DNA of 64,000 bases from Deltaproteobacteria bacterium (lineage in GTDB: Bacteria > Desulfobacterota > Desulfomonilia > UBA1062). Shown here one piece after another: positions 6,939 to 28,601 of the stretch. Location of the stretch: positions 66,121-130,120 of the forward strand of contig JAHDQN010000057.1 of NCBI GenBank assembly GCA_018433775.1, given 5' to 3'. Both the position numbers and the translations under genes were made by a program. The notes under the pieces are model-generated. The model searched no databases. It was not told the DNA's origin and saw nothing but the letters and a program-made list of their open reading frames with translations. Positions within the stretch are counted from its first letter, which is position 1, and each line of letters opens with the position of its first letter.

Positions 6939-8663
6939 TTATGACGGGCTGCCCGGGTCGAGCAGCGCCATTCTTGTTTCTATCTCGTGGGGCGGGGCTC
7001 CGCTCAAAAGGGCGTCCTGAAGGAGACTGAGCGCAGGTGCCATTTTCCCTTCAGCCCGGGAGATATCAGATGCCAGGAGCCGGGCACTCCAGCACCGGGG
7101 ATCGAGCGTGGTCGACGCCTCTGCCATTGCAGAAGCGGCAGCGGACTGGTCCTGCTCGAAGAGCCGCTGTCCGATCAGCACACAGAGTCCGGCCAGCTCT
7201 TCGGCGCTCCCGATCTCGAGGTCCGTGCTCATACTGAAGATTTCCATGAGCCGTTCGATCGCGCTTTCGACGTGCTGCATCTCGCCGCAGGCAATACCCG
7301 TGGATGCCGTGGCGGCAAGGATCCGGAGATCGTCCGGAAACGACCCCAGCGCCTTGAGGTAGACCGCATGGGCATCGGTCGTCCTGCCTGCGTGCCGGTA
7401 CAGCCGTGCCAGAGCCAGAATCACCTGGACATCCTCGTTTGCACCGTGGCCATAGGCGTGCTCCAGGTGGGTGAGGGCTTCATCGACCTTTCCTCCGGAT
7501 ATCAGGGCAAAGCCGAGGGCCTTCCTGGGAAGGGGCCATTCCGGGTTCATCCCGATGGAATCCCGGTAAGCGATGGCGGCCTGGCTGGATCTGCCGGTTT
7601 TTTCAAGGGCGCGGCCCAGCGAGTAGGACATGGCAGCCCTTATGTCCGAGGGCTTGGCATATCCATCCACCTCGAACCCGTGCCTTTGCGCGGCCAGAAA
7701 GGATTGTACAGCCTCGCCGTAGCGCTCGAGCCCGAAGAGAACCATACCCAGGCCGTAGTGCATGTATCCGCTCCGGGGAGACCGTGCCACACCGTCCAGG
7801 GCCTCTTCGAGGGCCTCGTTCATTCTGCCCTGTTTCAGGTGAATGTCGGTCGCCAGGAAGGAGCTCGTGAGATACCAGCCTTCGCTCTCTGAGCATTTCC
7901 TCGCCTCCTTGATGTGTTCCATGCATTTGTCGTAGTCTCTGAGGCCGTAATAGGTCATGGCGATCATGAAGTGCCGGTGTCCTGAATCCGTGCCCTCAGC
8001 GAGTTCGTCGAGCTGGATTGCAAGGTTTCTCCTACGCTTGGCCTCCAGGGACGACTGGTCTGCATACCCGGTGTGGTGGATGGCGATGCCCGTGTTCACA
8101 AATCTTATCCCCGAGGTCTTCTTGAGCGAGGGCAGGAGCTGCTCGTGGATGCGTCCCTCGAACCTCACGCCCTCCATATGGGGGAAGATGCGCAGCTGGA
8201 TGGAACCCAGGGAGCCCCAGGTGACAGGGGTGTTCAGGAGTGTGAGGAAATACGCGGTGTGTTTCCCCGGATCGAGCGATCTTTTCAAACCTCGCAGGGC
8301 TGCCGCCGCCTCTTGTGTCACGTGGTCGTCCGCGTCGAGCCACAGGAGGTAGTCGGACTCAGCCAGCGCGATAGAGGCGTTGCGCGCCGCCGAGAAATCG
8401 TCGCACCAGGAGAAATGCCCGATCTTCGCCCCAAAGGACTTTGCCAGAGAGACGGTTGAGTCGATCGACCCGGTGTCCACGACGCAGATCTCGTCGACTA
8501 CGTCCCTGATGTCGGAGAGGATGCGTCCGAGGTTTTGCTCCTCGTTCTTCACGATCATGACAGCCCCCAGGGTCGGCTTTTCGTGGGGTTTTGTCACGGC
8601 CGCTCCCGATGATGCCGGGGGATCGATGACTGCACGGCGCGCCCCGCCTTCATGAAGCTTCAC
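6939..8663 (-). CDS. Glycosyltransferase family 2 (GT-A) catalytic domain fused to C-terminal TPR repeats; candidate flagellin glycosyltransferase (same composition as Listeria GmaR, from memory).
   Basis: 574 aa. GT2 core PTLGAVMIVKNEEQNLGRIL...VVDTGSIDSTV...DYLLWLDADD (DxD), then TPR-like repeats. Paralog of 21222..22892. Last gene of the nine-gene operon; overlaps the upstream 1598-aa gene by 14 nt. Confidence 0.8.
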   Translation of the reverse strand: MKLHEGGARRAVIDPPASSGAAVTKPHEKPTLGAVMIVKNEEQNLGRILSDIRDVVDEICVVDTGSIDSTVSLAKSFGAKIGHFSWCDDFSAARNASIALAESDYLLWLDADDHVTQEAAAALRGLKRSLDPGKHTAYFLTLLNTPVTWGSLGSIQLRIFPHMEGVRFEGRIHEQLLPSLKKTSGIRFVNTGIAIHHTGYADQSSLEAKRRRNLAIQLDELAEGTDSGHRHFMIAMTYYGLRDYDKCMEHIKEARKCSESEGWYLTSSFLATDIHLKQGRMNEALEEALDGVARSPRSGYMHYGLGMVLFGLERYGEAVQSFLAAQRHGFEVDGYAKPSDIRAAMSYSLGRALEKTGRSSQAAIAYRDSIGMNPEWPLPRKALGFALISGGKVDEALTHLEHAYGHGANEDVQVILALARLYRHAGRTTDAHAVYLKALGSFPDDLRILAATASTGIACGEMQHVESAIERLMEIFSMSTDLEIGSAEELAGLCVLIGQRLFEQDQSAAASAMAEASTTLDPRCWSARLLASDISRAEGKMAPALSLLQDALLSGAPPHEIETRMALLDPGSPS

Positions 8664-11600
8664 CCGTGAAAGCCCGTGTGGCCGATCCGGCCTGTTCCTG
8701 GAGGGCGCACAGCCTGCCGATGTCGGGGTTTTCGGGCTGGGCCCTTTTCACCAGCTCGATGAGGTCGGCCTGGACAAGGTCGTGCCTGTTCGTGGCAACG
8801 AGTGCATCCAGCAGGTTGGCCAGTGCGTCCGGGTCCCGCGGATTCAGGCTCAGGGCCTTGTGCATGGTGACGATGGCGTCGTCGATACTCCCGAGCTCCC
8901 ACTGGATCACTCCGAGGTTGTTCAGTGCCTGGGAGTTTGCCGGATCGGTCTCGAGGACTCTCCTGAAGACCCTGATCGCTCCGGCAAGATCGCCTTCTGC
9001 ATACCGCTGCTCGCCCATCTCGATGAGTATCCCGATCCGCTGGTTCATGGTGAGGTGGAGGCGATACCCGTCTTCTGTCATCTCGAGTATGTCTTTCCAC
9101 TTCTCTGCGAAATAGGTGCGGTTTTTTCCCATGACCTGTTCATAGTCGATGGCGTTGCCGGTGAAGGTCATGCTGCCGTAGTGGTGGATGAAGACATCGC
9201 GGGCCATGATGTTGCGGAAGCCTGCAATGCGCGAGCGCAGGCAGAGGTCGTCGTCCTCGAAGTTGCCGCTGCCGTATTTTTCATCAAGGCCGCCGATGAT
9301 CTCGATAAGGGAGCGTTTCATGAGCAGGCAGAAGCCTACGAGACGAAGGGTGTCCTCGAATCTGCCTGCGTTGTCGCGGGCGAGATCCCGGGCAAAGGCA
9401 TGCATCCGCTCAAGACCGCTTCCGTCGGGTGCACCCTCGACGAGCTGGGGGCCGGAGACCGAGTTGCTCATGGGGCCGACCATGCCGATGTCGCCCGAGC
9501 TGTCGAGGTGTCCGAGCATGCCTGAGAGCCACCCCTGGGTGACGATCACGTCGTTGTTCAGGAGCAGGATGTACGCTCCTTCGGCCGCCTGGATGCCCTG
9601 ATTGCAGCCTCTGGCGAATCCGAGATTCTGCTCGTTTTCGATGAGCTTGTAGTTGCTGTTTTTTTCCGCCAGGGTTCGGAGCCACTGAACCGTGCCGTCG
9701 GTCGATCCGTTGTCCACGAAGATGATCTCGTGGGGCTCGGGCGTGTGCTCCTTGATGCTCTGCACGCACTGCTTCGTATATTCAAGTCCGTTGTAACTGA
9801 GGATCACGATGGAGACCGGACCCTGCATTGCCTCGGGCTGCCGCAGCGATTCGTGCTCGCCCTGTCTGCCCGGTGCCTCGTAGAGTCGGATACGCCGGGC
9901 ATCGGTCCAAAGAAGAGTCCCGTCCTCCTCTATGACGGCATCGGGGGTGATCCTGCCGATCCATTTTTCGTGCAGGCGCTGGATATTCTCCTTGATCTTC
10001 GTAAAGCGCTCGGGCCCGCTTTTCGATTCATGGTGGATCAGCACGCTTTCCGGCTGGTAGACGAGAGTCCATCCCTTCTCCTGGAGCCTGAAGCACAGAT
10101 CGAGGTCTTCGTAGCCGTTCCAGTACCCCTCGTCGAACATGCCCACCTCCTCAAAGAGGTTTCTCCGTACCAGAAGACAGCCTGCGGTAAGGGCCTGATA
10201 CGTCCTGGATACGTTGGCATCCCGGTGGTCAGCGGGCAGGCCGTAATAGATATGCCTCCCGACAAGGGGGTCTGGAAGCTTTTTGTCGTCGATTATCAAC
10301 ACTCCGGCATGCTGGATGGTTCCATCGGGGAAAAGCATCCGGCTGCCGGCTGCCGCGGCCGTGGGATCGCTGTCCAGCACAGTAACCAGAGCGGCAAGCC
10401 ATCCCGGCCGGGGCTCGGTGTCGTTATTGAGGAAGAGAACATAGGGCGATGAGGCCGCCTGCGCCCCCTGGTTGCAGGCCCGGGCGAAACCCAGGTTCTC
10501 CGGATTGGCGATGACCCTGACCCTGTTCCCGAGGCCTTCGAGATAATCCCGGGTCCCGTCCGTGGATCCGTTGTTCACGACAATGCACTCGAATGCTCCG
10601 GGGGGCGTGTTGGAAAACAGGGCATCGATGCATTTCCTGGTGAATTCGACCTTGTTGAAGACGGGTATCACGATCGACACACGGCTTGCTGTACTGGTGC
10701 ATTCGCCCGTGACCGGAGACGGCTGCATCTCCCCGGGCATTTCCGATTCCGCCCCGGCACCAGGTGACGAGTGGGCGGGCCGGACCTGTCCACGGTCGTT
10801 TGCGAAAAGCACGGCCCTGCGGGTGGCTTCAAGATATGTCCTCCCGAATCTGTGATCCGGTTCGAGATGACAGCCTTCGCCCCATTCGTTGAAGGCATTG
10901 ATGAAAACCATCCTTTCTTTCGTCTGTGATTGCAACAGCCTGGCGAGGACTTCCTTGAGCCATAATTCATAGAGCTGTGGCGTCGTGTTATGGAAAATTA
11001 CGGCCCCTTTCCGGCGCCTCGGGGAATTGTCCCAGGACGGGCAGACACAGGGGAAGCGGAGATAGTCGGGCTCGCTTTTCGAAAGTGCCGCCCGGATAAG
11101 GGCATGATAATCGTAGACGTGGTGTCCGGTGTGCATCAGGTCTTCACGCGGTTTTCCCAGGTGGATGCCGTCGGGCTGGAATTCTATGGCAGCGTCGAAG
11201 CCCAATGCCCTGGGATCGGTCATGTCCTGGACGAACCGCTCGACGCGGCAGAGAAAGAGATCCCCGATCCCCTGCCTGCGGGCTTCTTCTCGCCAGAGCG
11301 TGGTAGTGGCGAGCGGATCGGGCAGATTGCTCGCCCGGTACACGATGAACAGAGGTTTGCCGTCTACCTGGATGTATCGAGGGTCCCTGAATATCCCGCA
11401 GAGGTGCCTGATGTGGTCAAGATCGTCCTGAGCGCTGTAGTTCTGCTGTATCAGGACATCGCAATCGCGGCCGTCCCAGGCACGAGTCCAGTTCTCGTTG
11501 GCCCAGCACAGGCAGAAGGGGAAGTCGGGTTCCCCGGATTCCAGCACCTGTCGCAGGGGATAGTCGAGCAGGAGCTTGCCGTTGAACCAGTAATGGTAGT

Positions 11601-20851: not shown

Positions 20852-21221
20852 GTGAATACACCGTTTCCCGGTCCCAGTGGCAAAAAGCCGTCTCCCGTTC
20901 TCAAACAGTATCTTCCCGGACCGTTGTTTCCTTGCATGAGGCTCCGCCCGTTATGGGTGAAAAGCCGCCCACTTTGAGAAAGCATCATAACCATGTTCTG
21001 CTGACCCAACATAAACCGGGATGAATTCAGCAATATATATGCCATGCACATACCGGTGGTTATGTTTATGATTTAATAGGGATAATCCCCGCTTGTTGCG
21101 AGAGAGAGTCAATATATTGACTTTTTGCATGGCCGAATTTGGCAACCGCCGGAGATTCACTGTCCAGGGAAAAATATCACCGGCTGCGCTGCTCATGATT
21201 GCGCAGGGAAAAGACGATAGG

Positions 21222-22892
21222 ATGCCTATGGTCAAGTTGCAGGAACAGGGAAGAGATGACAAGCGGCCCACGCTGGGGGTCGTGATGATCGTGAAGAACG
21301 AGGAAGAGAGGCTCCCACTGATTTTGTCCGACATCCAGGGGGCTGTCGACGAGATCGTGGTGGTGGACACGGGCTCACGAGACCGATCGGTCGAAATAGC
21401 CCGATCTTACGGCGCCAAGACCGGGTTTTCTGCCTGGTGCAACGACTTCTCAGCTGCAAGGAACGAATCAATACGCCTTGCCGGGTCAGACTACCTGCTC
21501 TGGCTGGATGCCGATGACCGAATCCGTGCGGAAGACCGGGAAAAGATCCGAGAGCTCAAAAAGAGCCTCAGACCGGCAAGAGACAGAGGATATCTGCTCA
21601 GGATCATGGTCCAGGGCAATGACGATTCAGACACTGTCGCCCTGCAGCCGAGGATCTTCCCGAACAGGGAAGGGATCGTGTTCGAGGGGAGGATACACGA
21701 GCAGATACTCCCCTCAATGGAGCGAAGCGGTGTTGCACTTGAAAAGGTGGACATCACGATAGAACATTCCGGCTATCACAGCCCCGAGGTCATCCGGGAA
21801 AAGGCGGAGAGGAATCTCAAGATCCTCATGGATGGGTCGGGTCGGAAAGAAGGCGATGTCATGCATCTTTTCCGCATTGCCATGAGCTATTATGCGCTTC
21901 GCGATTATGAGAAGTGTCTCGAATATCTCGCCCTGATAAGGAGACAGACCGGAACGGAAACCCGGGAGAAATATCATTACCTCGTGGCGGCAGAGTGCTA
22001 TGCCCGGATGAATGAACCCGGGAGTGCTCTGCGGGAACTGAGGAATGCGGTCCGGATCTTTCCGCGGAGCGGGGCCGTGCAGTATTTTCTGGGCTATCTG
22101 TGTCTCAGGATAAATTTACTCGATGAAGCGATCACCGCACTGGGGAATTCTGTCGGCCTGGGTATAGAGATCGAGAATTTTCCTCTTCCCACGGATATCC
22201 GGGAAGGTCTGCACTACCAATACGGTTGCGCCCTGGAAAAGGTGGGACGGGTCCGGGAAGCCGTATCTGCCTATCAGGAATCTCTGCATGCGAATCCGGG
22301 CTACACTCCTGCACTCAGGGCCCTGGGAATGGTCCTGTTGAACTCCGGTGAAGTGCAGAAGGCCATATCCTGTCTGGAGCGTGCGCAGCAGAGCGCGGGG
22401 AAATACGATCGACAGCTATGCCTTTCCCTGGCAAGGGCTTATATTTTCGTGGGCAAATTCTCCGACGCCCATGCCGTCTACCTCGGGTCGCTCCAGCACG
22501 ATCTCTGCGATATGGAAGTTCTCTCGGGAGCCGTTCAGACAAGCATAGAGACGAATGATATTCAGACGCTCCGGTCATCGATCAGAACATTGGCGTCCTT
22601 TTTCGGAAGAGAAGGGGGGGATTTTCCGGATGCGGCCGGTGACTATGCCGGCGCATGTGCGGAAATCGCGCGGGTGCTGCTTGACCGTGATGATCCGCTT
22701 ATTGCGAAAAGGCTTGCCGATGCCGCATTGAGGATGGATGAAACCTGTGCCCATGCGCACCTGGTCTGTGCGGATATCGCTCTTGTATCCGGCGATGTCG
22801 TAAAGGGCATCTCATGCATGGAGAAAGCTTTGTCTCATGGGGTCTCGCTTGATCAGATCACGGAAAGGATGGAGAGAATCGGCACGCCATGA
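21222..22892 (+). CDS. GT2 (GT-A) + TPR glycosyltransferase, paralog of 6939..8663; candidate flagellin glycosyltransferase. Start taken at MPMVKL; the track ORF starts at TTG 21093.
   Basis: PTLGVVMIVKNEEERLPLILSDIQGAVDEIVVVDTGSRDRSVEIARSYGAKTGFSAWCNDFSAARNESIRLAGSDYLLWLDADD is nearly colinear with the 6939..8663 product. C-terminal TPR repeats. The 21093-21221 extension contains a promoter-like palindrome. Confidence 0.8.
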   Translation: MPMVKLQEQGRDDKRPTLGVVMIVKNEEERLPLILSDIQGAVDEIVVVDTGSRDRSVEIARSYGAKTGFSAWCNDFSAARNESIRLAGSDYLLWLDADDRIRAEDREKIRELKKSLRPARDRGYLLRIMVQGNDDSDTVALQPRIFPNREGIVFEGRIHEQILPSMERSGVALEKVDITIEHSGYHSPEVIREKAERNLKILMDGSGRKEGDVMHLFRIAMSYYALRDYEKCLEYLALIRRQTGTETREKYHYLVAAECYARMNEPGSALRELRNAVRIFPRSGAVQYFLGYLCLRINLLDEAITALGNSVGLGIEIENFPLPTDIREGLHYQYGCALEKVGRVREAVSAYQESLHANPGYTPALRALGMVLLNSGEVQKAISCLERAQQSAGKYDRQLCLSLARAYIFVGKFSDAHAVYLGSLQHDLCDMEVLSGAVQTSIETNDIQTLRSSIRTLASFFGREGGDFPDAAGDYAGACAEIARVLLDRDDPLIAKRLADAALRMDETCAHAHLVCADIALVSGDVVKGISCMEKALSHGVSLDQITERMERIGTP

Positions 22893-22979
22893 TCGAGGAG
22901 CCGGCTCGGCCGTTATCGGCACGGCCATCTTTCCACAGGGAGCGCCAGAAATCCTCCCGTTTATCCGGCTGCACGGGTT

Positions 22980-23075
22980 GATGCGAGAGCGGCTCTGTCG
23001 ATCATCGATGATGCTATCCATAAAGCCGGCGCAGTGCTTGGCGACATCGGTGCATTGATGAACCGGTTCGACTAA
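22980..23075 (+). pseudogene. Flagellin gene relic: about 96 nt encoding ...DARAALSIIDDAIHKAGAVLGDIGALMNRFD* (the D1 C-terminal helix), with no N-terminal part and stopping 61 codons early.
   Basis: Roughly 80 percent nucleotide identity, by eye, to fliC 24125..24220 (DASEALSIVDDAIDAVGTVLGDIGAVVNRFD). The reading frame differs from the track ORF 22837..23058; the upstream in-frame sequence is unrelated to flagellin. Confidence 0.6.
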
Positions 23076-23108
23076 ACCTGTTTCAAAAAAGGAATTGTTA
23101 TTCAGTGT

Positions 23109-23135
23109 TAAAGTGCAAAACTTTTTTGCCGATAA
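23109..23135 (+). promoter_or_regulatory. Sigma-28 (FliA) class-3 flagellar promoter, TAAA-N15-GCCGATAA.
   Basis: TAAAgtgcaaaacttttttGCCGATAA is an exact match to the sigma-28 consensus, about 135 nt upstream of the fliC ATG. Confidence 0.75.
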
Positions 23136-23270
23136 GGGGGGAAGAGATAAAAACCAATGAAAGGAGGGGGGCAAGTAACACATTGTCTGATCAGGACAAT
23201 AAAAACTGATCAAATATAAAAAAACGGCCAAGGATGGCCGGAAAAACAAAAAATCAAGGAGGATTTAATT

Positions 23271-24404
23271 ATGGCACTTCGTATCAACACCAACGTAGCA
23301 GCACTCAACGCACACCGGCAGTTACTCGGAACAGAGCAGAGACTTGGTCAGAACATGGAGAAGCTCTCCAGCGGTTACCGCATCAATAAGGCTTCTGATG
23401 ATGCGGCCGGCCTGTCGGTTGCCAACCGGCTCCGCACCAACATCAGGTCATTGACCGTTGCATCGAGAAACGTCACCGAGGCGAAGGCCATGGTGGCCAT
23501 CGCAGAAGGCGCGGCCAACCAGGTGGAAGGTATTCTCGAGCGGATGAAAGAGCTCGCAACCCAGGCCGCATCGGACAACGCAGCCCAGGACCGCGACAAA
23601 ATCGACAGCGAGTTCCAGTCCCTCAGAGACGAGATCACCAGGATTGTGGGCGACACCGAGTACCAGGGCACCAAGCTCATCGACGGCACCTTCGGTAACG
23701 CCCTTGACGCAGACACCTCCACCGCTGACGGCGTGACCGGTCTCGATGCCAGCGGCATCAGGCTCGGCGGAGTGGAGGCAGGCATTTATACCATTGGCGC
23801 GACCGCGGGCGGGGCAATCACCATCACGGGTCCGGCTGATGTCGGAATCGAGCAGACCGTTAACACCACTTCAGACGGTGCACAGAGCCTCAGCTTCGAT
23901 GCACTCGGCATCACCCTCAACCTGGGCGAGGACTTTGATTACAGCGAAGCTGATCTGGACGGAACAGCCATTGTCGTCACCAGCGGGACCGGGACCTATC
24001 AGGTCGGCTCCAGCAACACGGCGGCAGAGGACGAGATCTCCGTATCTCTGGGCAACCTGCAGGTGAGCGAACTCGGTTCGGGTACGGGCAGCATGATATC
24101 CGACGTGTCTCTGGCCACGCGAGCCGATGCGAGCGAGGCCCTGTCGATTGTCGATGACGCCATCGATGCAGTCGGCACAGTGCTCGGCGACATCGGTGCA
24201 GTGGTGAACAGGTTCGACTACACTTATTCCAACCTGCAGATCACCATCGAGAATTTCTCGTCTTCCGAGTCGGTCATCCGGGATGTGGATATGGCGGCTG
24301 AGATGGTCAGCTTCACGAAGAACCAGATCCTGCTCCAGGCCGGTACTGCCATGCTGGCACAGGCCAACATGTCGTCCCAGGGCGTCCTGAGCCTGATGGG
24401 TTAG
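23271..24404 (+). CDS. fliC: Flagellin.
   Basis: 377 aa. Conserved N-terminus (MALRINTNVAALNAHRQL...LSSGYRINKASDDAAGLSVANRL) and C-terminus (...AMLAQANMSSQGVLSLMG). Ser/Thr/Gly-rich central variable region. AAGGAGG Shine-Dalgarno 8 nt upstream. Confidence 0.95.
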   Translation: MALRINTNVAALNAHRQLLGTEQRLGQNMEKLSSGYRINKASDDAAGLSVANRLRTNIRSLTVASRNVTEAKAMVAIAEGAANQVEGILERMKELATQAASDNAAQDRDKIDSEFQSLRDEITRIVGDTEYQGTKLIDGTFGNALDADTSTADGVTGLDASGIRLGGVEAGIYTIGATAGGAITITGPADVGIEQTVNTTSDGAQSLSFDALGITLNLGEDFDYSEADLDGTAIVVTSGTGTYQVGSSNTAAEDEISVSLGNLQVSELGSGTGSMISDVSLATRADASEALSIVDDAIDAVGTVLGDIGAVVNRFDYTYSNLQITIENFSSSESVIRDVDMAAEMVSFTKNQILLQAGTAMLAQANMSSQGVLSLMG

Positions 24405-24422
24405 CGACGATCTGATCCGGTG

Positions 24423-24454
24423 AGATCACGGGGCTTAAGCGCCCCGTGATCTCC
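24423..24454 (+). terminator. Perfect 13-bp GC-rich hairpin after fliC (gagatcacggggc-ttaagc-gccccgtgatctc), no U-tract.
   Basis: Read directly; 18 nt after the fliC stop. Probable partial terminator or RNA-stabilising hairpin. Confidence 0.5.
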
Positions 24455-24470
24455 CTGGTGAAAGGCGGGT

Positions 24471-24881
24471 GTGGCCATGAAGATAGTCAGCACAAACCCA
24501 ATCATGACAGAGCCGGTCCTTGGTGATTATGCAAGGGCGAAGACTCAGGCCACCCTTATGGAAAATGAACGGTCGTTCCTCAGTAGTCCGAATCGCGAGA
24601 GCATAGGCCAGGTCCGTGATGAGAAACAGCAGGCCACGGAGATGGTGCGAAAACTCGATGCTGAGGAAACGAAAGAAGCCTTGAAAGATCTCAATGAACA
24701 GCTGAAACGCATGAATCGTACGATTCGTTTCAGCATAGACGAGGAATTGCAAGATGTCGTGGTGAAGGTTGTTGACAAATCCAGTGGAGAGGTCGTCTCG
24801 CAGATTCCACCCGAGGGAGTTCTCAAGCTCAGAGAGCGGATACGCGACATGGTGGGTTTGCTCGTTGAGAAGAAGGTGTAG
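24471..24881 (+). CDS. flaG: Flagellar protein FlaG.
   Basis: 136 aa. C-terminal FlaG signature ...RFSIDEELQDVVVKVVDKSSGEVVSQIPPEGVLKL. Confidence 0.85.
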   Translation: MAMKIVSTNPIMTEPVLGDYARAKTQATLMENERSFLSSPNRESIGQVRDEKQQATEMVRKLDAEETKEALKDLNEQLKRMNRTIRFSIDEELQDVVVKVVDKSSGEVVSQIPPEGVLKLRERIRDMVGLLVEKKV

Positions 24882-24945
24882 GGTGGCTTAGAGAAGATTC
24901 AGAAAAATTGGGGCCGGATCCTCAAGATCCGGCCCTGATTGTTCG

Positions 24946-27900
24946 ATGAATACCGGCAATAGAGCGCAGGGAGGGACAGACGTGTCAAACTATATTTCAG
25001 GTATGGCATCAGGTTTCGACTGGGCCTCCATGATTACGCAGCTGATAGCCCTGGAGCGGCGGCCCATCGATCTGATGGAGTCCGACAAGGAAAATGTCAA
25101 TGCCCGCTACAATGCCTGGACCTCCATCAACACCAATCTCCTCTCTCTGAAAACCGCGGCAAAGGCCTTGTCAACCAAGGAAGACTTCAACCTGTATTCT
25201 TCCGGCTCGTCCATCACCGGCACGAGTGCGGATGTTACGGATCTTCTGGATTTTTCCATAGGCTCGAACGCGACCGAGGGTTCTTACAGTCTCAAGGTGA
25301 ACAATCTGGCACAGGCGCAGAAGCTCGGATCGAGAAGTTTCAGCTCGACCAGCGAGGCGCTGAACATCTCGGGCGATCTTGTTATTAACGGGCAAGCCGT
25401 GAATATCGCGAGCACGGACAGCCTCTCGGATGTCCGGAACAAGATCAACGAGCTGAACTCGGGAGAAAATTCGGCCGGGGTCACGGCATCCATCTTCACG
25501 GTGGATCAAGGAGAGTACCGGCTCACGTTCACCTCGCAGAAGACCGGGGCCGGCGGGATCGATATCGCCAACGGGTCATCGACCGACGTGCTTGGACTTC
25601 TGGGCCTCACAGACGAAACCGCGGACCTGAAGCATGCCGTTACCGGAGGAGCCCAATCCTCGCTGTTCACCAGCTCCACCCAGGATATCGAGACACTGCT
25701 CGGGCTTAGCGCCGGTGCCTCGGGGAATGTGACGATCGCCGGAGAGAGCATCGCGATCGATCTCTCCACGGATTCCCTGCAGTCGATCCGTGACACGATC
25801 AACAGCAACGCCAATCTTCAGTCGCTCGGCGTAAGCGCATCCATCGTTTCCGAGACAGACTCCGGGACCACACAGTATCGTATCCAGATCAACGGGACGC
25901 AGTCGCTCACCGATACGGACAATATCCTCCAGACGCTCGGCTTCATCAAGCTCGGGCATTCCGATGTCACCGGCCTTGCCGGGGGCACGGGCAACACGGT
26001 AAACGGCAAGGCGATCACCGAAGATACCCTGCTGGCCGATATCGACGGATACAACACCTGGACATCGGGCGATACGATAACCATTCAGGGAACCGACCAC
26101 GGCGGCTCGGCCGTGGGGCCGGTGAGCTTCACTGTCAACGCCTCATCCACCATGGGTGATCTCCTGCAAGCCGTAGAAACGGCCTTCGGAAGCAACGTCA
26201 GCACCTATGTGGACGGCAGCGGCGCAATCGTGGTAGAGGATCAGCTCTCGGGTGCATCCGGTCTTGCCCTGACATTGACATCAAACCTCGCGGATGCGAA
26301 CTCTGTGCTGGATTTCGGTGCATTCGATGCATCCACCATACGCAAGCGCCAGATCACTGCCGGGGAAGATGCCCTGATCACCGTGGACGGGATCGATATC
26401 ACCCGGTCGGACAACCAGATCACCGACGTAATAAGCGGGGTGACACTGAGCCTGCGGAGCGAAGACCCGGACGCCGAAATCACGCTCAACATCAACAGGG
26501 ATTACGACGGCATAAAAAAGAAGATATCCGATTTCGTCACCAGCTACAACGATATCATTTCCTATGTAAACAGCCAGTTTGACTATACCGAAAAGGGAGA
26601 GGATGTCGAAACCCCGCCCCTGTTCGGTGATTCGGCGCTTCTGACCGTGAGGGGATCCATCCGCAACGTGATTCTTTCCGGTGTCACAGGGCTCAGCTCT
26701 TCGTTCGATCATCTGAGCCTTATCGGCGTCAATCTGGACAAGAATGGAAATCTCTCGATCAACGATGCAAAACTCGACGGTTACCTTCGGACGAATTTCT
26801 CCGATGTGGTCAATCTCTTTGTCGCGCAGGGCAGCAGCTCAAACAGCAACGTTACCTATCTGAGCTCCAGGGAGAAAACCCAGGAGGGGACGTATGATCT
26901 GGAGATAACACAGGCCGCAACACAGGCCAATACCACGGGTGTGGGCTTCAACGGCATACTGAGCGAGGATTCGACCCTGACCGTGACTGACCAGGGGGGA
27001 AGGGAAGCGATCATTTCTCTGGAGGCCGGGTGGGGCATCACGTCGATCGTCAATGCGATGAACTCGGAGTTTTCCCGGGAATATCAGGAGGTCCGGGTGG
27101 GCGCCAATAGCTATTATTCGGATGCCTCGCAGACTTCAGCGGTCAACGCGGGAACGACTTGGGACAGCGTGCACGATGAGACAGGAGCCTCTGCAAACCT
27201 GGCGGACGGTGACACGATTACCTTTTCGGGTACGAACCGCAGCGGGAAAGAGATAAGCGGATCCTATACCATCGCGGATGTCTCCGCAGACACGGTCGGC
27301 GGGCTCCTGAGCGAGATCGAGGCGTCCTTCGGCAGCGGATACGACGCCTATATCGACTCGCAGGGGAGGATCGCCATCAAGGACACGGCCATGGGCGATT
27401 CGAAATTGAGCCTGAGCGTTTCTGCAGTCAAGAACCTGGATTTTGGCGCAATCGATGTGGATCCGACCGGCGCTGACGGGTCTCAGGAAGGCAGGTATTC
27501 GATGAGCATGACCGCCGCGAACAGTGACGGCCAGCTCAAGATCTCGAACAATGATTACGGCGATTATAGCTTTACCGTTTCTGCAGCCGGCGGCAACCTC
27601 GGGGTCAACGACGGCACCTACACCGGCACCGCGGTAGCCGGCAGGATCAGGGCGGAAGGCTCGAGCGCCTGGATGACCATGACCGGCTCGGGCAGGACCC
27701 TTACCGTAGACAATGGCCAAGACGCGGAAGGCCTCGTGCTCAGATATGCCGGCAGTTCGACCGGCACCTTTGACTTCACCTTCATGACCGGCGTGGGCGA
27801 GAAGATGGACCGGGCGTTGTACTATATGACGGATACCTTTGACGGGTTCATCGCAGACAAGCAGTCGACGCTGAAGAACCGGATGAACTCAATCGATCTG

Positions 27901-28053
27901 AAGATCGAGGCGACCGAGAGACGCATCGCGAAAAGAGAAGAGATCTTGATGGCCCAGTTCGTCACCATGGAAAGGCTCATTACCCAGTTTCAGGCTCAGC
28001 AGCAGTGGCTGGGGTCTCAGATCGGCAGCCTTGGCGGGTGGTCGGGCGAGTAG
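24946..28053 (+). CDS. fliD: Flagellar filament cap protein FliD (HAP2), unusually long (1035 aa).
   Basis: N-terminal FliD_N (GMASGFDWASMITQLIALERRPIDLMESDKENVNARYNAW) and C-terminal FliD_C (...MNSIDLKIEATERRIAKREEILMAQFVTMERLITQFQAQQQWL). Long Ser/Thr/Gly/Asp-rich middle. Confidence 0.85.
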   Translation: MNTGNRAQGGTDVSNYISGMASGFDWASMITQLIALERRPIDLMESDKENVNARYNAWTSINTNLLSLKTAAKALSTKEDFNLYSSGSSITGTSADVTDLLDFSIGSNATEGSYSLKVNNLAQAQKLGSRSFSSTSEALNISGDLVINGQAVNIASTDSLSDVRNKINELNSGENSAGVTASIFTVDQGEYRLTFTSQKTGAGGIDIANGSSTDVLGLLGLTDETADLKHAVTGGAQSSLFTSSTQDIETLLGLSAGASGNVTIAGESIAIDLSTDSLQSIRDTINSNANLQSLGVSASIVSETDSGTTQYRIQINGTQSLTDTDNILQTLGFIKLGHSDVTGLAGGTGNTVNGKAITEDTLLADIDGYNTWTSGDTITIQGTDHGGSAVGPVSFTVNASSTMGDLLQAVETAFGSNVSTYVDGSGAIVVEDQLSGASGLALTLTSNLADANSVLDFGAFDASTIRKRQITAGEDALITVDGIDITRSDNQITDVISGVTLSLRSEDPDAEITLNINRDYDGIKKKISDFVTSYNDIISYVNSQFDYTEKGEDVETPPLFGDSALLTVRGSIRNVILSGVTGLSSSFDHLSLIGVNLDKNGNLSINDAKLDGYLRTNFSDVVNLFVAQGSSSNSNVTYLSSREKTQEGTYDLEITQAATQANTTGVGFNGILSEDSTLTVTDQGGREAIISLEAGWGITSIVNAMNSEFSREYQEVRVGANSYYSDASQTSAVNAGTTWDSVHDETGASANLADGDTITFSGTNRSGKEISGSYTIADVSADTVGGLLSEIEASFGSGYDAYIDSQGRIAIKDTAMGDSKLSLSVSAVKNLDFGAIDVDPTGADGSQEGRYSMSMTAANSDGQLKISNNDYGDYSFTVSAAGGNLGVNDGTYTGTAVAGRIRAEGSSAWMTMTGSGRTLTVDNGQDAEGLVLRYAGSSTGTFDFTFMTGVGEKMDRALYYMTDTFDGFIADKQSTLKNRMNSIDLKIEATERRIAKREEILMAQFVTMERLITQFQAQQQWLGSQIGSLGGWSGE

Positions 28054-28084
28054 GATACAGAGATACCGGGGCACAGAGCTGGAA

Positions 28085-28115
28085 GGGGTGACGGAGCTAT
28101 CCGCCACCCCCTTTT
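28085..28115. terminator. Rho-independent-type terminator between convergent fliD and 28137..28601(-): GGGGTGACGGA-gcta-TCCGCCACCCC followed by CTTTTC.
   Basis: 11-bp stem with one mismatch, 4-nt loop and a T-run on the plus strand, 32 nt after the fliD stop. Confidence 0.55.
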
Positions 28116-28136
28116 CATTCCGGGAATACGGGTGCT

Positions 28137-28601
28137 TCAGTGTGCGGCCGGGACGGGATAGGACCTGTCACCCATCTTGAGAATGATCCTTCCTTCTTCA
28201 TCCTCTTCCATCATCAGGGCCAGCAGATAATACGCGGCGCGGGAGAATCGCACCTTCATGCCGTCTGGCAGCAGGCAGTACATGACGTTCTGCTCTCCGA
28301 TGGACAGGGTCCCGGGGTCGAGCTTGTGAACCTCGCCCGTGTTCAGAAGCACCAGGAGTCCGGTCTCCTGGTCCCCCCGGATGGACGCCACCACGAAGGG
28401 GGTGTCTTCCACATCCACATAGCAGACCTCGGACTGAAAGACGATCCGGTACCTGCCATCTTCGTCCTTCTGGAGCGCATTGCAGAATGTCAGGAGAACC
28501 AAGGGGTTCACGATCTCCTGGTTCTCGTAGTACCATTTCCCTTCCTTGTCGATCCGGATTTTGCAGGAGTCGGTGACATCCCGGAGTTCGCTCGGCTTCA
28601 T
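28137..28601 (-). CDS. Conserved hypothetical protein (DUF1285-like?).
   Basis: 154 aa. IRIDKEGKWYYENQEI...LLTFCNALQKDEDGRYRIV resembles the DUF1285 family as I recall it. Weak call. Confidence 0.35.
   Translation of the reverse strand: MKPSELRDVTDSCKIRIDKEGKWYYENQEIVNPLVLLTFCNALQKDEDGRYRIVFQSEVCYVDVEDTPFVVASIRGDQETGLLVLLNTGEVHKLDPGTLSIGEQNVMYCLLPDGMKVRFSRAAYYLLALMMEEDEEGRIILKMGDRSYPVPAAH

Follow-up and report, generated by a model that had tools for sequence, protein, structure and literature searches.

The flagellin gene fliC of an uncultured Desulfomonilia-type bacterium adjoins a glycosylation island, and a short stretch of DNA between the two translates into a peptide resembling part of FliC itself. 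What is this stretch, from which gene does it derive, and does it still serve a function? These questions were addressed in the surrounding 64,000 nucleotides (hereafter “the window”, meaning the whole stretch of DNA that was analysed) and in related fliC loci. The coordinates of the relevant features are listed in Table 1.

Table 1. Features of the fliC upstream region, in window coordinates
Feature	Position	Strand	Remarks
GT2+TPR glycosyltransferase, last gene of the island	21093..22892	+	Pfam Glycos_transf_2 + TPR
Probable upstream continuation of the relic, more decayed	22936..22979	+	fliC codons ~271-285; may reach ~22920
Core flagellin relic	22980..23086	+	fliC codons 286-320, start of conserved C-terminal helix region
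Start of the DNA shared by all locus types, with sigma-28-type promoter	23106..23136	+	TTAAAGT-N14-GCCGATAA
Intact fliC, 377 aa, Flagellin_N + Flagellin_C	23271..24404	+	followed by flaG, fliD
Segment of intact fliC that matches the relic	24126..24232	+	ungapped alignment to relic

The flagellin-like segment and its extent

The 96 nt from window position 22980 to 23075 translate into DARAALSIIDDAIHKAGAVLGDIGALMNRFD, followed by a TAA stop, just as had been reported in the initial annotation of this DNA. That annotation had also estimated an identity of about 80% to fliC codons ~285-316, which was borne out by direct counting: 77/93 nt are identical over the 31 codons 286-316. Local alignment against fliC gave a significant match, in which nucleotides 856-962 of the gene align with 22980-23086 on the forward strand without gaps and with 87 of 107 positions identical (81.3%). 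When the whole 64-kb window was searched with blastn, this match had an E-value of 3e-24; the next best fliC matches were at E ~ 0.7, and no other match of this kind was present within the 64 kb. The stop codon of the GT2+TPR gene occupies 22890-22892, leaving 87 nt before 22980, and the TAAA of the sigma-28 promoter begins at 23110, 34 nt from the TAA of the relic; both distances had been given correctly.

To the right, the homology extends 11 nt past the TAA. Beyond 23086 the identity is at background (4/15 per 15-nt window), and no flagellin similarity was found there. The core of the relic corresponds to codons 286-320 of the 377 codons of fliC. It is an internal piece of the gene (approximately codons 270-320 when the upstream continuation is included), with the last ~57 codons, i.e., the C-terminal D0 helix, absent, and not the 3' stump that had been proposed.

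To the left of 22980, nothing flagellin-like was detected by BLAST-type methods, and tblastn with fliC and with its N-terminal 140 aa revealed no flagellin N-terminal or central domain outside fliC in the 64-kb window. An earlier statement that no flagellin-like sequence lies upstream was therefore sound with regard to BLAST similarity and the N-terminal domain, but failed when the register of the core alignment was simply continued without gaps. The 60 nt before 22980 matched five fliC alleles at 26-29/60 positions in this register, compared with 15.5 ± 3.4 for ~ 1000 other offsets, among which the true register ranked first or nearly first. The preceding 30 nt matched the five alleles at 15/30 in the same register, and the identity to fliC over 22936-22979 was 20-21/44. 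This in-register excess suggests that flagellin-derived DNA probably reaches left to about 22920-22936. The 43-57 nt right after the GT2+TPR stop could not be distinguished from a chance match to fliC. Two other ways of aligning the upstream DNA were discarded. When gaps were allowed, the 87 nt preceding the relic aligned to fliC no better than shuffled sequences did, and a one-codon shift that gives a conserved “SVSLG”-like peptide was unsupported at the nucleotide level.

Decay and source lineage of the relic

The relic carries changes that disable it as a flagellin. The TAC codon of Tyr317 in fliC is replaced by TAA (23073-23075), and the Asp of the motif “AID” has become His (“AIH”), whereas this Asp is kept in the best 40 of 120 homologues. 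Over 31 codons the relic differs from fliC by 10 non-synonymous and 6 synonymous changes, giving a dN of 0.14-0.20 and a dS of 0.20-0.39 (NG86). The resulting dN/dS of ~ 0.4-0.8, a rough ratio based on 31 codons only, compares with ~ 0.17 for fliD (dN 0.027 and dS 0.16 between strains). No ORF of at least 30 aa from a start codon exists in the relic frame, and the Flagellin_N (PF00669) domain, a start codon and a ribosome-binding site are all lacking. The 60-aa translation of 22893-23072, which spans just the first third of Flagellin_C, had no Pfam match at E ≤ 1. The Flagellin_C profile (PF00700) does not recognise the relic, and the homology is visible solely by direct comparison with fliC. 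The segment thus combines significant nucleotide homology in a single register with disabling changes and relaxed constraint, as is characteristic of a pseudogene fragment.

Identity to fliC is uneven across position 22980, being 81% over the 107 nt of the core and ~ 45-50% over the 60 nt upstream of it. Among themselves, the five known fliC alleles show good conservation over this poorly matching stretch of 60 nt. Such unevenness is not expected if a plain copy of the present fliC had decayed neutrally at an even rate; it requires either a source that already differed there, as an allele or a paralogue, or small rearrangements. Judging by the drop from 81% to ~ 47%, the source was already distinct from the known alleles at the border of the variable domain, as would be the case for a diverged allele or a paralogue.

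Identity of the core was 80-84% with own-clade fliC alleles (window and L082-L085) and 68-70% with those of the outgroups L087, L088, and L091. Among themselves, the own-clade alleles are 91-98% identical over the same 107 nt. The relic carries the clade-derived states GAT, CTG, and TTC (encoding part of NRFD), as found in fliC of the window and of L082-L085, and none of the flagellins compared was closer to it than these own-clade alleles. Taken with the identity of 80-84%, the clade-specific states point to a source within this fliC lineage that split off late, and that was neither an ancient paralogue nor a foreign flagellin. Database searches with the relic peptide gave no parent candidates. 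The query is too short for a word-indexed protein search to be informative, and phmmer against 1.84 billion representatives returned no match at E ≤ 0.001 with a 39-aa query that carries too few bits.

Distribution among relatives and the island haplotype

The 107-nt core was found identical at 107/107 positions in L001, L083 (GCA_050949585.1), and L084 (GCA_025563055.1). All three also have the island and its GT2+TPR gene in common, along with a 378-nt spacer of 98.9-100% identity; L083 and L084 are related MAGs. The relic-bearing assemblies are independent and stem from different samples (Logan SRR13787005, GCA_050949585.1, and GCA_025563055.1); the three genomes are nearly identical here, and conservation among them is uninformative on selection either way.

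In the sister loci L082, L085, and L176, a gene with a FliB_C domain lies directly upstream of fliC in place of the relic, its placement in L176 being read from the gene table. BLAST detected no relic in the FliB-type loci L082 and L085, which are homologous to the window from 23106 onwards, over 7-9 kb and with 91% identity. Conversely, no FliB remnant was detected in the window by tblastn. The FliB_C domain upstream of fliC is PF27117, of the flagellin lysine-methylase type, and the genes are located at 5433-5984 in L082, 4223-5587 in L085, 1851-3197 in L176, 11778-12701 in L173, and 10892-12247 in L174. The FliB_C gene of L082 encodes only 183 aa, and fliD of this locus is split in two ORFs (7828-10784); since the contig coverage is ~ 1.2x, both are probably sequencing errors.

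More distant relatives share the downstream synteny of flaG, fliD, DUF1285, TetR, and BKACE, and the relic is absent from the outgroup loci L087, L088, L089, L091, and L172-L174. Upstream of fliC, these loci carry a GT2-TPR gene followed by a FliB_C gene (L173 and L174), a GT2-TPR gene directly followed by fliC (L172), TPR/GT41 genes (L091), or other DNA (L087 to L089). Altogether, 11 related fliC loci had readable DNA upstream of the promoter, ranging from ~ 170 nt (L177) to 9-10 kb; L086 and L090 begin too near fliC, and the upstream DNA of L177 is also too short to inform. In all loci with at least a few hundred nt upstream, fliC was preceded by plain spacer or by genes, which were FliB_C, GT2-TPR or others. 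A second flagellin was not present at the position of the relic in L082-L085, L087-L089, L091, L172-L174, or L176, each of which has a single fliC. The succession of a GT2-TPR gene and two tandem flagellins was seen solely in distant loci of the Syntrophobacterales type (L055, L072, and L152). The identity of GT2-TPR orthologues drops from 98% straight to ≤ 58%, and no partly decayed intermediates were recovered among relatives of the island, as genome and metagenome scans gave only homologues of ≤ 47% identity. In L015, a “delta proteobacterium” MAG, a short flagellin at 1577-2253 follows a GT2-TPR homologue and has its C-terminal part spread over two frames, possibly representing a frameshifted flagellin or an assembly error.

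The island itself includes two GT2-TPR genes and genes for a 1598-aa WbsX/GT2 protein, DegT, a hexose dehydratase, GFO/IDH, an aminotransferase, an acetyltransferase, and an ATP-grasp protein, placing a glycosyltransferase and sugar-biosynthesis genes next to fliC. The GT2+TPR protein upstream of the relic has a native, intact C-terminus, as homologues align through residue 598 of 599 and the paralogue in the window (6939-8663, reverse strand) aligns to its very end. The two full-length paralogues share 38% aa identity (E = 6e-122). They are located at opposite ends of the island in opposite orientation, and bracket the sugar-biosynthesis genes and the 1598-aa WbsX/GT2x2/TPR protein. No foreign base-composition signature was found in the island or the relic.

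When nine upstream regions were aligned, the -35 element was the first invariant block, and everything to the left of it differed between lineages. The relic ends 19 nt within the strain-variable side of this junction at 23106. It is at the sigma-28 -35 element that every cassette type adjoins the conserved unit. In a sliding-window comparison, the window was 98-100% identical to L083 and L084 from at least 20970 to ~ 23302, at the start of fliC. Past this point the identity was 89-90% in the fliC N-terminus, 60-70% in its centre, and ~ 93% downstream. In the centre of fliC, as many as 40% of the nucleotides vary from strain to strain, with flanking sequences that are 93-100% identical. In the downstream region (window 23303-28400), dS of fliD was 0.004 between L083 (island type) and L085 (FliB type), compared with 0.16 between the window and both, and flaG of L083 and L085 is likewise almost identical. 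Such a block of 98-100% identity over divergent fliC alleles and backbones indicates that island, relic, promoter, and 5'UTR constitute one unit, which homologous recombination has recently put on different backbones and fliC alleles. The crossover of the modification cassette was placed near the start of fliC. Because the relic is 16-19% divergent from any fliC, it predates the spread of this block, and it travels passively with the island haplotype.

Origin and possible function of the relic

We consider it likely that the relic is a non-functional leftover of ~ 110-165 nt from a flagellin copy of the same lineage, which once stood between the GT2+TPR gene and the fliC promoter. The core idea of the initial annotation, a decayed flagellin relic in this position, was therefore right. 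Such an internal fragment implies a minimum of two breakpoints, located near 22893-22936 and at 23087-23107. The rearrangements, in their order and type, are a reconstruction from the observed homology, truncation at both ends, decay, distribution and haplotype block. A complete or partial copy of fliC-lineage DNA would have arisen between the GT2-TPR gene and the fliC promoter in an ancestor of the island haplotype. An economical route would be the tandem duplication of a segment reaching from the promoter to codon 320, which would put codon 320 right next to the DNA preceding the promoter, just as observed. The promoter and the first ~ 270 codons of the upstream copy would next have been deleted; alternatively, a complete second flagellin may have been trimmed by two deletions. 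The remaining fragment would then have drifted, and would have been carried along in the block of island, relic, promoter, and 5'UTR.

The initial annotation had favoured a former tandem flagellin gene, deleted or disrupted, possibly by insertion of the glycosylation island. That the relic is the remnant of a complete and functional tandem gene of the flaA/flaB type, destroyed by deletion or by island insertion, we regard as unlikely, although several observations are in line with it. Many bacteria have one flagellin directly after a GT2-TPR homologue on the same strand, two tandem flagellins follow GT2-TPR in L055, L072, L152, L029, and L081, and a paralogue diverged under selection would be expected to show such a drop, from 81% to ~ 47%, at the border of the conserved C-terminal domain. 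A complete tandem gene is thus possible, but the comparison with relatives lends it no support: no second flagellin occurs at this position in any relative, be it in island-type, FliB-type or outgroup loci with readable upstream DNA, and tandem flagellins after GT2-TPR turned up only in distant taxa when synteny was compared (L055, L072, and L152). The derived states of its own clade, moreover, imply a late split of the relic from the fliC lineage. Disruption by the island is likewise unsupported, as no 5' flagellin half exists at the other island border (~ 6939) or anywhere in the 64-kb window, and the relic falls on the island side of the junction and accompanies the island as it moves. We therefore lean towards a lineage-specific, probably short-lived or partial duplicate over an old, conserved second flagellin. 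That the similarity is due to chance or to an assembly artefact can for practical purposes be dismissed. Its short length is the only point in favour of this; the E-value of 3e-24 speaks against chance, and the same sequence would hardly recur in the same surroundings in three independent assemblies if it were an artefact.

It is also very improbable that the relic is functional today, be it as a recombination patch with fliC, as a regulatory RNA or antisense target, or as a read-through tail of the GT2+TPR protein. What suggests such a role is that the TGA of the GT2+TPR gene and the relic share one reading frame, that 22893-23072 contains no stop codon, and that flagellin glycosyltransferases are described as binding flagellin through their TPR domains (FlmG, PMC7591256). 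A segment derived from a flagellin ORF would, however, be expected to retain an open frame, and an in-phase arrangement has a 1-in-3 chance; for these reasons the shared phase was judged to be a coincidence. The GT2+TPR protein also ends where its paralogue in the window and its homologues end, which argues against a read-through tail. As for a recombination patch, the longest exact match to fliC is ~ 23 nt, an identity of 81% is poor for homologous recombination, and no recent gene-conversion tract is present. The invariant Asp and the Tyr have been lost, and sister loci with an apparently intact fliC (L082, L085, and L176) lack the relic. Nor did the relic display an Rfam match at E ≤ 1, a forward-strand terminator, a promoter-like site, or an unusual RNA fold (z = -0.5), and the overlapping ORFs at 22812-23249 (reverse strand) and 22837-23058 (forward strand) had no Pfam match. 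From these missing signals we infer that the relic is a non-functional pseudogene fragment without a function of its own. That it is kept as a flagellin-mimicking read-through tail of the GT2+TPR protein, or as a homology patch guiding recombination of the island haplotype, appears scarcely credible. The residual chance of any function, which we take to be very slight, derives solely from the in-phase open frame and the position of the relic.

Read-through of the GT2+TPR TGA would append 60 aa ending in the flagellin-like peptide. Selenocysteine insertion or read-through at this in-phase TGA was considered and set aside, as the protein ends like its paralogue and homologues and the extension ahead of the relic would be Arg-rich junk.

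Truncated and partial flagellin pseudogenes arise by duplication and deletion, and the tandem flaA/flaB loci of Campylobacter recombine and delete. Similar to such truncated pseudogenes, the relic adjoins a working flagellin gene, lacks the N-terminal domain, contains an in-frame stop and has been under relaxed constraint. Unlike the known cases, e.g., those at Campylobacter flaA/flaB loci, it keeps only ~ 35-50 internal codons. It also differs from stable two-gene flagellin loci in that it has no known intact partner in relatives and is linked to a mobile glycosylation-island haplotype. Accordingly, the relic is a new, unannotated instance of a familiar kind, a real but ordinary pseudogene scar.

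Flagellin glycosylation islands with a GT2+TPR (GmaR-like) or TPR-GT (FlmG-like) transferase beside the flagellin gene are known (PMC9638930 and PMC7591256). The island in the window is of the same design, in that fliC directly follows GT2+TPR in the same orientation and sugar-nucleotide genes lie beside the latter, and this adjacency of GT2+TPR and flagellin recurs in dozens of the loci compared. In contrast to the island machinery with its predicted enzymes, the relic is debris at the right edge of the island. In the sister strains, one and the same promoter-fliC unit is preceded either by a FliB_C gene or by the island, like alternative FliB and glycosylation cassettes; unlike these flagellin-modification cassettes, the relic is a by-product and itself no cassette.

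On its own, the relic matters little, other than as a historical marker: a fliC-lineage copy was once located downstream of the glycosyltransferase gene, ahead of the fliC promoter. The relic also tags an island and promoter haplotype that has recently spread over strains with very different flagellin alleles. Its surroundings are more informative, as FliB and glycosylation cassettes are interchangeable at the -35 element and the centre of fliC is hypervariable. In E. coli and Salmonella, the centre of fliC undergoes H-antigen-like allelic replacement. The pattern around the relic bears on the diversification of the flagellar surface in environmental relatives of sulfate reducers and matches what is known from enteric bacteria.

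The 5'UTR of fliC (window 23137-23270) is conserved across nine loci. Its conserved elements are GAAAGGAGG, the palindromic GTCTGATCAGGAC...ACTGATC, and the Shine-Dalgarno sequence AAGGAGGA. No Rfam match was obtained in this 5'UTR. It contains a hairpin, CGGCCAAGGATGGCCG, with GGA in the loop, for which a compensatory change to CGACC...GGTCG was observed in L087 and L088. The layout of the 5'UTR resembles that of the CsrA/FliW-controlled flagellin leaders of other bacteria.
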